The notes below the pieces were generated by a model. The model ran no database searches and was not told the DNA's origin. It saw nothing but the letters and a program-made list of their open reading frames with translations. From positions 6,696,001 to 6,760,000 of the forward strand of contig NW_027142006.1 in assembly GCF_036365525.1 (NCBI RefSeq): a stretch of DNA of 64,000 nucleotides. Reading direction: 5' to 3'. How positions within the stretch are numbered: position 1 is the first letter of the stretch; each line of letters opens with the position of its first letter. Origin of the DNA: Heterodontus francisci. Taxonomy: Eukaryota. Below, piece after piece: positions 37,779-44,731 of this stretch. The translations under genes and the position numbers were made by a program.

Positions 37779-37939
37779 AAATCCCGCCCTCTTCCGTTTG
37801 TCAGTGCCCTGATTGGTGAAGAATATAGGCAAATGAGGTGAATTAAGTACCGACCAAGGAGATGAGTTCTCAGTCTATAAGTACAGTAAATGCTGCGGAA
37901 AATAACCATTCTTCGTCAAGGTATTTGTGAGATTGTTGA
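37779..37939 (+). promoter_or_regulatory. Histone H2A promoter and 5'UTR, now abutting the Tx1 insertion
   Basis: GC box, ATTGG, GGCAAATGAG and TATAAGTA at 37876-37883. Removing the Tx1 places it directly before H2A codon 3. Confidence 0.78.
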
Positions 37940-39822
37940 TATCGCACACCTACATGATGGACGTGCTTTCCAAAATGGGGTTTTGGGAGGGAATCTGCAA
38001 TTGGATCCAACTGCTCTACACAAACATCAGTAGCGCAGTGTCAATCAACGGGTGGGAATCTGAAAGTTTCCCGATCAAATCTGGAGTCAGACAGGGCTGT
38101 CCTCTGTCCCCGGTCTTGTTTGTTTGCTGTATTGAACCCTTTGCTGAGTCTATTAGGAAGGATGCGAGCATAAGAGGGGTGACAATCCCAGGCAGCGGAG
38201 GCACTCAGGTCAAAACCTCCCTGTACATGGATGACGTCGCCGTCTTCTGCTCGGATCCGCTGTCCATGTGCAGACTGATGAGCATCTGCGACCAGTTCGA
38301 ACTGGCCTCGGGAGCCAAAGTTAACCACGGCAAGAGCGAGGCCATGTTCCTTGGGAACTGGGCTGAACGATCCTTTGTCCCCTTCACCGTCAGGTCAGAT
38401 TACCTGAAGGTGCTGGGGATATGGTTCGGAAGGGCCCGGGCGTGCACCAAAGCATGGGAGGAGCGAGTAGCCAAGGTACGACAAAAGTTGGGCATGTGGG
38501 GGCAGCGATCTCTCTCCATTGTGGGTAAGAACCTGGTCATCAGGTGCGAGGCGCTCACGTTGTTGCTCTACGTGGCGCAGGTCTGGCCCATACCCCACTC
38601 CTGCGCCGTGGCAGTCACCCGAGCCATTTTCCGCTTCGTCTGGGGATCTAAAATGGACCGGGTCCAGAGGGACACGATGTTCAAATCTCTGGACAAGGGC
38701 GGGAAAAATGTACCCAACGTGGCCCTCATCCTGATGACCAACTTCGTGTGCGGCTGCATCAAGCTATGTGTAGATCCCCAGTACGCAAACTCCAAGTGTC
38801 ACTCCGTGCTGAGGTTCTATCTGTCCCCGGTGTTGCGAAGGATGGGCCTGGTCACATTGCCGCGGAACGCACCATGCAGTTGGGCGGCGCCGTACCACCT
38901 ATCCTTCGTGGAGCAGTTTCTGTGGAAAAACACCTTTGACCACCGGTCCATCAGGCAGTGGTCTGCACGGAATGTCCTCAAGGCCCTACGGGAAAAGGAA
39001 ATGGTGGATCCTGTCGGATGGTTCCCCGAGCAGACCGTCAAAGTCATTTGGCGGAATGCCTCATCACCAGAACTTTCAAACAAGCACCAAGACGTAGCTT
39101 GGCTGGTGGTGAGAAGGGCCCTCCCCGTCAGATCCTTCATGCACACCCGAAGTCTCGCCCCCTCCGCAGAGTGCCCCCGCGTTGGCTGTGGTGGGGAAGA
39201 GACGGTCGCCCACCTCCTCCTGGAATGTGCCTTTGCAAAGCAGGTGTGGAAAGAGATGCAGTGGTTTTTGTCAAGGTTCATCCCAAGCAGCTCTGTAACA
39301 CAGGAGTCTGTGCTCTACGGGCTGTTCCCAGGGACGCACACTGAGACAAACATCAACTGTTGCTGGAGGACTATCAATTCGGTGAAAGACGCCCTTTGGT
39401 CTGCCCGAAACTTGCTGGTCTTCCAGCGCAAAGAGTTGTCCACCACCGAATGTTGCAGACTGGCACATTCCAAGGTCCAGGACTACGTGCTGAGGGACGA
39501 CCTAAAGCTTGGGGCAGCCGCAGCAAAGGCTCAATGGGGAAAGACCACAGTGTAAGGTTCCCCCACCAAGCTGGACTGAGGGGCTGGAACCATGGGAAGC
39601 CCCTCGAACTGTATCGTTAATATTCTCAATTGCTGGAAATGTAAAACTGTAATTGACATGACAATTGTGAAACGGAAGGGTTGGGAAGAAACTCATGACA
39701 TTATTGAAAGAAACTGATCTCTTTTGCAATGTTTGTATTTTTTCGTGCTGTTTGGAAACTGTTTGGCAATGTAATTTTTACACATTTTTATGAATAAAGT
39801 ATATTATGGAAATAAAAAAAAA
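37938..39822 (+). mobile_element. 5'-truncated L1/Tx1-clade non-LTR retrotransposon inserted at the H2A start
   Basis: Uninterrupted ORF to 39555 with GVRQGCPLSP, YMDD and a C-x4-C-x7-H-x4-C knuckle (CPRVGCGGEETVAHLLLEC). About 260-nt 3'UTR, AATAAA, and an A-tail joined to GGAAGAGGAAAGACC. Confidence 0.95.
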
Positions 39823-40206
39823 GGAAGAGGAAAGACCAGCGGGAAAGCTCGGGCCAAGGCCAAGTCTCGCTCCTCCCGGGCTGGACTGCAGTTCCCAGTG
39901 GGCCGTGTTCACAGACTCCTGAGAAAGGGTAACTATGCTGAGCGTGTGGGTGCCGGAGCCCCGGTCTATCTGGCTGCTGTGCTCGAGTATCTGACCGCTG
40001 AAATCCTTGAGCTGGCCGGGAACGCGGCCCGGGACAACAAGAAGAGCCGCATCATCCCCAGACACCTGCAGCTGGCCGTCCGCAACGACGAGGAGCTCAA
40101 CAAGCTGCTGGGAGGAGTGACCATCGCTCAGGGTGGGGTGCTGCCTAATATCCAGGCCGTGCTGCTGCCCAAGAAAACCAGTGCTCAGAGCTCCCAGAAA
40201 AAGTAA
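39823..40206 (+). pseudogene. H2A: Histone H2A lacking its Met-Ser codons because of the Tx1 insertion; body otherwise open and near canonical
   Basis: [50 protein letters not shown]...VLLPKKT; the upstream sequence is the Tx1 tail. Confidence 0.93.
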
Positions 40207-40236
40207 AGCGGCCAAAATATCATCTAATAAACCAAA

Positions 40237-42486: not shown

Positions 42487-42502
42487 GGCTCTTAAAAGAG
42501 CC
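42487..42502 (-). terminator. Histone 3' stem-loop (H2B pseudogene)
   Basis: Minus strand GGCTCTTTTAAGAGCC. Confidence 0.95.
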
Positions 42503-42539
42503 GTTGTGTTTGGGATGTTTTTCAGTCCATTGTGCAGTT

Positions 42540-44731
42540 TTACTTGGAGCTGGTGTACTTGGTCACCGCCTTTGTCCCTTCCGACACGGCGTGCTTGGCC
42601 AGCTCCCCGGGCAGCAGCAGGCGCACGGCGGTCTGGGTCTCCCGGGAGCTGATGGTTCTGCTCTTGTTGCAATGGGCCAGGCGGGAAGCCTCACACGCGA
42701 TGCGCCCGAAAATATCGTTCACAAACGAGTTCATGATGCTCATGGCCTTGGAGGAGATGCCGGTGTCGGGGTGAACCTGCTTCATCACTTTGTAGATGGA
42801 GATGGAGTAACTCTCCTTCCTCGACTTTCTCCGCCTCTTGCCGCCCTTTGCTGATGGTTTACTTAAGGTTTTCTTGGCGCCCTTCTTAGGAGCTGCTTTC
42901 TTCTTTCTTTTTTCCAAAATATACTTTATTCATAAAAATCTGTAAAAATTACATTGCCAAACAGTTTCCAAACAGCACCAAAAAATACAAACATTGCAAG
43001 GGAGATCAGTTTCCTTCAATACTGTCATGAGTTTCTTCCCAACCCTTCCGTTTCACAATTGTCATGTCAATTACAGTTTTACATTTACAGCAATTGAGAA
43101 TATTAACGATACAGTTCGAGGGGTTTCCCATTGATCCAGCTCCTCAGTCCAGCTTGGTGGGGGAACCTTACACTGTGGTCTTTCCCCATTGAGCCTTTGC
43201 TGCGGCTGCCCCAAGCTTTAGTGCGTCCCTCAGCACGTAGTCCTGGACCTTGGAATGTGCCAGTCTGCAACATTCGGTGGTGGACAACTCTTTGCGCTGG
43301 AAGACCAGCAAGTTTCGGGCAGACCAAAGGGCGTCTTTCACCGAATTGATAGTCCTCCAGCAGCAGATGATGTTTGTCTCGGTGTGCGTCCCTGGGAACA
43401 GCCCGCAGAGCACAGACTCCTGTGTTACAGAGGTGCTTGGGATGAACCTTGACAAAAACCACTGCATCTCTTTCCACACCTGCTTTGCAAAGGCACATTC
43501 CAGGAGGAGGTGGGCGACCGTCTCTTCCCCACCACAGTCAACGCGGGGGCACTCTGCGGAGGGGGCGAGACTTCGGGTGTGCATGAAGGATCTGACGGGG
43601 AGGGCCCTTCTCACCACCAGCCAAGCTACGTCTTGGTGCTTGTTTGAATGTTCTGGTGATGAGGCATTCCGCCAAATGACTTTGACGGTCTGCTCGGGGA
43701 ACCATCCGACAGGATCCACCGTTTCCTTTTCCCGTAGGGCCTTGAGGACATTCCGTGCAGACCACTGCCTGATGGACCGGTGGTCAAAGGTGTTTTTCCG
43801 CAGAAACTGCTCCACGAAGGATAGGTGGTACGGCGCCGCCCAACTGCATGGTGCGTTCCGCGGCAATGTGACCAGGCCCATCCTTCGCAACACCGGGGAC
43901 AGATAGAACCTCAGCACGTAGTGACACTTGGAGTTTGCGTACTGGGGATCTACACACAGCTTGATGCAGCCGCACACGAAGGTGGTCATCAGGATGAGGG
44001 CCACGTTGGGTACATTTTTCCCGCCCTTGTCCAGAGATTTGAACATCGTGTCCCTCCGGACCCGGTCCATTTTAGATCCCCAGACGAAGCGGAAAATGGC
44101 TCGGGTGACTGCCACGGCGCAGGAGTGGGGTATAGGCCAGACCTGCGCCATGTAGAGCAACAACGTGAGCGCCTCGCACCTGATGACCAGGTTCTTACCC
44201 ACAATGGAGAGAGATCGCTGCCCCCACATGCCCAACGTTTGTCGTACCTTGGCTACTCGCTCCTCCCATGTTTTGGTGCACGCCCCGGCCCTTCCGAACC
44301 ATATCCCCAGCACCTTCAGGTAATCTGACCTGACGGTGAAGGGGACAAAGGATCGGTCAGCCCAGTTGCCAAAGAACATGGCCTCGCTCTTGCCGTGGTT
44401 AACTTTGGCTCCCGAGGCCAGTTCGAACTGGTCGCAGATGCTCATTAGTCTGCGCACGGACAGCGGATCCGAGCAGAAAACGGCGACGTCATCCATGTAC
44501 AGGGAGGTTTTGACCTGAGTGCCTCCGCTGCCTGGGATTGTCACCCCTCTTATGCTCGCATCCTTCCTCATCGACTCAGCAAAGTGTTCAATACAGCAAA
44601 CAAACTAGACCGGGGACAGCGGACAGCCCTGTCTGACTCCAGATTTGATCGGGAAACTTTCAGATTCCCACCCGTTGATTGAGACTGCGCTACTGATGTT
44701 TGTGTAGAGCTTTCTTCTTCTCCTCAACCAT
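42540..44731 (-). pseudogene. H2B: Histone H2B split by Tx1: 5' piece 44731-44709 (ATG GTT GAG GAG AAG AAG AAA GC) and body 42905-42540
   Basis: Body is H2B with substitutions at conserved sites (YSISIY, IFGRIAC, AHCNKSR, SRETQ). Promoter and ATG lie beyond the insertion. Confidence 0.93.
42906..44708 (-). mobile_element. 5'-truncated L1/Tx1-clade retrotransposon inserted in the first codons of H2B
   Basis: Same family as 37938-39822 (about 20 aa differences over 467 by eye); 3'UTR and A-tail; TSD AAGAAGAAAGC (plus strand GCTTTCTTCTT at 42895-42905 and 44709-44719). Confidence 0.96.

Follow-up and report, generated by a model that had tools for sequence, protein, structure and literature searches.

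Keno was reportedly described by Kojima and Fujiwara in 2004, according to papers that cite them, as an element of the Tx1 clade that targets the U2 small nuclear RNA (snRNA) gene. In the accessible text of PMC6136364, PMC4640811 and PMC4494074 Keno is a U2-specific Tx1-clade element that inserts 37 nt into U2. In crocodilians, Tx1-Mar and SINEU group with Keno and begin with heads derived from U1 or U2, and SINEU-3 shows tandem insertions around one target site duplication (TSD), as stated in the accessible parts of PMC4494074. The same parts suggest transcription from flanking promoters, describe two preferred sites without sequence likeness, name U5 in a figure legend as the target of some Tx1 family, and point to supplementary figures in which Tx1 flanks are listed; the word 'Histone' is absent from PMC4494074. 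The choice of target by Tx1 elements is usually credited to the sequence specificity of their endonuclease. Here we analysed a 64-kb window of the shark Heterodontus francisci (contig NW_027142006.1, positions 6,696,001 to 6,760,000, forward strand), in which an H2A and an H2B gene are interrupted by copies of a Tx1-type long interspersed nuclear element (LINE), and the element was followed through the genome of 6.0 Gb; this single genome underlies all counts given below. On balance, we favour the reading that the element is directed to positions some 31-48 nt past strong RNA polymerase II starts rather than to one sequence.

The first insertion in the window, event A1 (37938..39822, plus strand), is a 5'-truncated copy with the C-terminal half of the reverse transcriptase (RT), a zinc-binding domain, a 3' untranslated region (UTR) and an A-tail, which is directly joined to codon 3 of H2A, and its 5' flank consists of the H2A promoter and 5' UTR. 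A comparison with intact H2A genes shows that about 7 bases of the target, the ATG among them, were lost at this site, and no TSD is present. The TATA box of the gene (37876..37881, plus strand) stands 64 nt upstream of the 5' junction and is identical to the one that precedes the intact H2A in another locus (L081), while the coding sequence from codon 3 onward, severed from promoter and ATG, extends over 39823..40206 (plus strand) and is followed by a Histone3 stem-loop at 40232-40277. The second insertion, event B1 (42901..44710, minus strand), is likewise truncated at the 5' end and of the same family, and it interrupts H2B after codon 4, where ATG GTT GAG GAG precedes it. Its 11-bp TSD, as originally predicted, was located at 44719-44709 (5' copy) and 42905-42895 (3' copy), both on the minus strand. 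The TATA-like box (44791-44785), 5' UTR and first four codons of this H2B (ATG at 44731) occupy 44720..44791 and the remaining coding sequence, 95.5% identical to intact H2B, occupies 42540..42894 (both minus strand), with the stem-loop at 42463-42507.

Compared with an intact full-length natural copy found elsewhere in the genome (L263), A1 was 98.0% identical over nt 3447-5331 of that copy and B1 98.1% identical over nt 3522-5331, and a domain search detected PF00078 and PF13966 in the protein of the A1 family. A1 and B1 have unlike 5' ends and belong to separate subclades of the young family in our tree, and for these reasons the two independent sense insertions claimed in the original prediction were confirmed as separate events. 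Both have been amplified in the genome, and an identical H2A junction was seen in all 18 best genomic matches to the 3' end of the element.

We searched the genome for histone junctions with tail-plus-gene patterns, for which at most 100 matches per gene were listed and up to 30 fetched; because these and all other junction patterns used here require an exact 9-base tail word, diverged copies escape them. The counts were 440 for H2A, 56 for H2B, 6 for H3 and 424 for H4, a total of about 926 at most, amplified from some 14 events. By 5' end, TSD and identity, 14 distinct events could be told apart (seven in H2A, three in H2B, one in H3 and three in H4), all in sense orientation at about -2 to +12 of the ATG and with 70-98% identity to the young family. 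Both junctions lie inside the histone gene in 11 of them and the 5' side is lost in three; one event is full-length, and two stand in tandem at a single H2A site. Of the 44 matches that combine the tail with an intact ATG, every one has its junction at the ATG and none further up the histone 5' UTR, and no antisense junction was found at the H2A 5' end. At the genome-wide density of the element, 0.06-0.9 events would be expected in 15-nt sense windows (3,200-16,000 genes assumed), and the chance of at least 12 histone events is P ≤ 2e-10. Core-histone start codons are a real hotspot, used repeatedly and above chance.

The claim that histone 5' ends are a target thus holds and extends to H3 and H4, but the family as such is not histone-specific. 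The exact 18-mer of the element tail occurs 14,904 times and the exact 34-mer 4,445 times, with none for the reversed controls, the matches are spread evenly along the first contig, and the family numbers roughly 15,000 copies. The histone junctions amount to at most about 6% of tails (926 versus 14,904, by search patterns that differ), compared with more than 20% of flanks in the specificity criterion given in the accessible text of PMC4494074. In a tree of 64 copies including 10 histone events (A2, A3a, A6 and B2 were omitted as too short or deleted in the aligned part), the 10 events require 10 label changes, at least six of which are forced by supported branches, and they are scattered among U2 and dispersed copies without forming a histone clade. 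Among the dispersed loci, of which 42 were fetched from large contigs with 3 kb each and 41 were distinct, none had a histone gene within the fetched 3 kb. Histone 5' ends show an excess (14 events where fewer than one was expected), and a large majority of the copies lie elsewhere.

In 70 H2A-anchored windows chosen regardless of insertions, the element was found at the ATG in 19 of 73 H2A copies; 43 of the remaining 54 copies had a full open reading frame (ORF), and six further events sit in the spacers of the same windows. A single element family thus knocks out the start codon in about a quarter of the sampled H2A copies.

U2 genes are the chief specific target, hit at the Keno site, 37 nt into U2 and with the 3' flank of Keno as given in the accessible text of PMC6136364. 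We counted 240 tail-to-U2 junctions, mostly in one array, and the U2 insertions that were fetched carry differing 5' ends. Scored by eye in the first 100 listed, the nick was at +38, exactly the Keno site, in 64, at +35/36 in 28, at +33 in three, at +48 in four and elsewhere in one. In U1 four junctions were found at +37 to +40, one of them in a complete gene with a clean 14-bp TSD starting at +40; a pattern limited to nicks before +36 had given none, and the four were then found with a downstream motif. U5 gave two copies of one event at about +37. In the stretches L263-L266, which were picked for having insertions, all six U2 gene starts are interrupted.

The target sites agree better in position than in sequence. 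Of ten histone event flanks examined, eight have a TATA-like box 60-65 nt ahead of the ATG and two have a decayed one, and the histone nicks fall at TATA+61 to +72. A TATA box usually stands 30 nt before the start, a spacing that would place the histone nicks 31-42 nt behind the transcription start and thus overlapping the U2 window. Taken together, all target nicks lie about 31-48 nt behind the start, with histone starts derived from the TATA boxes, and on this reckoning the distance would be common to U2, U1, U5, H2A, H2B, H4 and one H3 type. In contrast, only 1-8 of 20 bases are shared between the hit sites and the U2 site, and over ten bases the match is 1 for H2B, 3 for H3 and 4 for U1. 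In U1, U2, U5 and H3 the element entered at sites that are not rich in GA, and at dispersed sites nothing is seen beyond an A at the TSD start and a T bias after it, which does not bear out the GA-rich endonuclease preference that had been proposed. From the positional reading hits in other snRNA genes were predicted, and those in U1 and U5 were then found.

Several results weigh against a positional rule. Hits in the 5' UTRs of H1 and of H3 genes with a long UTR were predicted as well, and none was found, either in the 5' UTR or at the ATG of H1 (patterns from natural H1 copies of two types) or in the 5' UTR of those H3 genes; U4 also gave no junction, a weak zero since its pattern came from a motif not confirmed in this genome. 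At ATG+2, H2A and H4 match the U2 site in 6 of 10 bases, which places them in the top 2-3% of positions, and because these two genes hold 10 of the 14 events, sequence must matter. The ATG and the position 35 nt behind the transcription start site coincide in every hit gene, where the histone starts follow from TATA spacing, and few events underlie the hits in U1 and U5. Counted in favour of the rule, the body of the gene is free of 3' ends of the family in the 70 H2A-anchored windows and of insertions in 355 coding pieces, but this zero is weak alone, as an estimated 0.3 events or so were expected in the sample. At dispersed copies, a CpG-island-like context was seen in 0 of 36 and 0 of 20 flanks, and a TATA box 58-70 nt upstream in 0 of 17. 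In view of the zeros at H1, long-UTR H3 and U4 and of the likeness of H2A and H4 to U2, position alone is insufficient; the best fit is position together with a weak sequence preference, a combination that we hold to be somewhat probable.

Under the reading that we favour, the element inserts in sense orientation at the Keno site of U2, at core-histone ATGs and about 37-40 nt into U1 and U5, and its endonuclease is likely guided by position, to a stretch of strongly transcribed RNA polymerase II genes that lies about 31-48 nt past their start. The element, which would lack a promoter, may be co-transcribed from the promoter of its host gene. The nick in the template strand would fall where DNA is laid open, or the element ribonucleoprotein tethered, by a polymerase complex that is early or paused, and target-primed reverse transcription would follow the nick. 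A weak preference for a T|RTCTG-like sequence is probably added to position and favours U2, H2A and H4, and interrupted histone genes would multiply passively along with their arrays. More tentatively, the 'sequence specificity' of Keno type for U2 could be one face of a ruler that measures about 37 nt behind the start, at early or paused polymerase II; as part of the same claim, and held just as tentatively, the element would gain a strong host promoter, and histone genes would be its second home and an occasional source of copies.

Four other explanations have to be considered. An endonuclease like that of Keno with loose sequence recognition could cut look-alikes of U2 in open promoter DNA, the distance from the start being incidental. 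Such recognition is the standard account of Tx1 targeting in the accessible text of PMC4494074, and it would agree with the H2A and H4 nicks being among the better ten-base matches in the genes with most events, with the T or TC that follows the A-tail at dispersed junctions (T in 25 of 51) and with H1 and long-UTR H3 being unhit. However, the best U2-like site inside H2A, with 8 of 10 bases matching, has no junction versus 440 at the ATG, the matches at H2B, H3 and U1 are poor, and the U2 nicks themselves range from +33 to +48, and we regard this explanation as unlikely. Less likely again is a compartment effect, in which the element made at U2 genes enters open DNA of the same nuclear body (the bodies concerned being Cajal and histone locus bodies), helped by proximity and a lack of nucleosomes, with no ruler linked to the polymerase. 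The specific targets found all belong to the non-polyadenylated class of polymerase II genes, no junction turned up in 5S and U6, which polymerase III transcribes (weak zeros, with motifs not confirmed in this genome), and dispersed copies lie away from ordinary promoters, all as a compartment would have it; yet it leaves unexplained the 15-nt window on one strand, with no antisense junction and 0 of 44 further up the 5' UTR, and H1 and U4 should share the body and are not hit.

The insertions at the ATG might also be harmless nulls of random origin that survive selection and multiply with their arrays. Only about 14 events underlie the 926 histone junctions, the arrays are large (789 exact H2A 34-mers in the genome) and the spacers of the H2A windows hold the six events mentioned above, as this would require; selection, however, removes events and cannot yield 11-14 of them where fewer than one is expected, the H2A site was reused in tandem, and the distance is the same for the hits in U1 and U5. 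The event count largely refutes this explanation, which we consider very improbable. Equally improbable in our view is a family or sublineage specialised on histone genes. The start codons of all four core histones were reused across a wide age range, and one copy that ends in H2A sequence (L272, see below) may derive from a histone-borne source; against such a specialist stand the intermixing of histone copies with U2 and dispersed ones, the share of at most about 6% of tails, the absence of histone genes from all 41 dispersed loci, and the full-length heads, which are from U2 or U1 and never from a histone 5' UTR in the five copies seen.

The natural copy L263 is intact, lies inside a U2 snRNA gene with a 15-bp U2 TSD, and provides the full-length copy whose recovery had been proposed. 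Its ORF1 (509 aa) contains ZCCHC3-type RNA-binding domains and CCHC knuckles (PF23057, PF23058, PF00098), and its ORF2 (1135 aa) contains an apurinic/apyrimidinic endonuclease (APE), RT and a zinc domain (PF03372, PF00078, PF13966). The endonuclease region of ORF2 matches LINE-1 endonuclease structures, the RT region shares 44% identity with a zebrafish protein that bears the name 'transposon TX1 149 kDa', and BAC82621.1 shows 36% identity over ORF2. With the A-tail, 5' truncation and TSDs, which appear to be 7-20 nt long at 17 dispersed sites, this domain content supports the original assignment, and judged by its sequence features the element is a Tx1-type LINE.

In L263 only about 60 nt separate the U2 head from the start of ORF1. 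U2 sequence also heads four long copies that are dispersed or nested (complete in one and clipped in three, by Rfam U2), and another long copy is headed by U1 nt 1-31, identical to the same stretch of the U1 gene in L271. The 5' end was visible in three of 13 long dispersed copies probed at full-length distance (L250-L262). The sequence data suggest an element that lacks its own promoter and may be transcribed from the snRNA gene that it occupies; co-transcription from the host promoter would explain the U2 and U1 heads. Fragments of the element with 72-86% identity are also present in shark gene models, and the public models P0021, P0026 and P0042 contain pieces of its ORFs and are likely annotation chimeras. 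Such models were considered as evidence on targets and found uninformative.

Like Keno, the element is of the Tx1 type with an APE, and it enters U2 at 37 nt, next to the 3' flank that is given for Keno (accessible text of PMC6136364). Unlike Keno, it has only about 1.6% of its tails at U2 (240 versus 14,904), well below the 20% of flanks mentioned above; core histone, U1 and U5 genes are hotspots for it as well, and thousands of its copies are dispersed. It is Keno-like at U2 and is not filed here as Keno. It resembles Tx1-Mar in having a U1 or U2 head on an autonomous Tx1 element, but the target of Tx1-Mar is a Mariner transposon in the accessible text of PMC4494074, whereas here intact copies reside in real U2 genes and share their upstream region, which directly explains the U2 head. 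Utopia, as far as the accessible text of PMC4640811 goes, likewise targets the U2 site or other snRNA genes independently, but has a restriction-like endonuclease instead of the APE found here, and no histone target is mentioned there; Dada reportedly targets the same U2 site or other snRNA genes, but is a DNA transposon.

TRE5 of Dictyostelium and Ty3 and Tf1 of yeast rely on host transcription factors to choose a target by its distance from a promoter. Their targets are polymerase III genes or lie upstream of promoters, and Ty3 and Tf1 are long terminal repeat (LTR) elements, whereas the window described here lies inside polymerase II transcription units. In the literature covered, with Repbase, most subscription papers and supplements outside the search, no LINE was reported that inserts at the start codons of histone genes or keeps a set distance from polymerase II starts. 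Seven kinds of genes that are unlike in sequence are hit about equally far from their starts, and H2A contains a better match that is spared; if position is what guides the element, the polymerase II machinery would be steering a LINE in a vertebrate. This would also explain from where Tx1-Mar and SINEU took their U1 and U2 heads and how such elements are transcribed, a point left open in the accessible text of PMC4494074. As an intact natural copy, L263 makes the positional idea directly testable.

About 90% of the copies are dispersed and without a recognised target. Dispersed target sites have an A at the start of the TSD and a T bias after it, with no further pattern; a GA-rich consensus was absent from 22 reconstructed sites. 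Gene promoters were rejected as the place of dispersed copies, there being neither a CpG nor a TATA signal, and so was a common repeat as target: the flanks match common repeats, but at scattered positions. An all-against-all comparison of the flanks of dispersed loci gave no common insertion position, and a spacer derived from U2 follows the A-tail immediately in one of the 41 loci. In ten of the 41 (L022, L024, L025, L030, L035, L037, L039, L042, L046 and L059) one site was reused by 2-4 same-strand copies a few bases apart; the TSD often spans the 5' junction of the older copy, the downstream copy is clearly more diverged in six of the ten, and no shared sequence accounts for the reuse. Reuse of this kind indicates that favoured sites exist also beyond the multigene targets.

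Very large histone arrays were observed on several contigs (L061-L090, L207-L246), and 150 H1 matches were scored among 699 candidates. In L169, L170, L176, L177 and L182 an amplified chimera consists of H2A nt 1-88, the 3' end of the element and H4, probably made by a deletion that ended inside an H4 insertion. In L192, on a contig apart from the main arrays, the element and H2B alternate with a period of 2,283 bp. In L272 (664-712, minus strand as oriented there, together with L274) an 88% identical copy on another chromosome, in a contig where no histone arrays are known, has H2A nt 1-40 and then a second A-run after its tail; this copy, the sole such case found, has no clean TSD and is flanked by a diverged duplication of about 200 nt, and its H2A tail is a possible 3' transduction from a histone-borne source.

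Within the 64-kb window, positions 1-13383 and 25010-38392 form a 13.4-kb segmental duplication with 99.96% identity, which may reflect real turnover of the array or an assembly duplicate. A third 3' end of the family, at 13679, belongs to a segment (12929..13679, plus strand) that combines the duplicated 5' part of A1 with its 5' junction (12929-13383) and, across an internal deletion, a 3' piece adjoining CR1. The original prediction was right in placing it next to CR1, and as a third histone event it was rejected. An intact H2B (36704..37078, plus strand, stem-loop at 37111-37156) served as uninterrupted comparator. The uninterrupted H3 gene of the window (41094..41501, minus strand) is of the long-5'-UTR type, in which no insertion was found genome-wide; its stop codon is lost, giving a 169-aa frame (40992-41501, minus strand) that is also seen in amplified copies. 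At 22134-23729 there is a 69-bp tandem repeat of about 23 copies with frames open on both strands.

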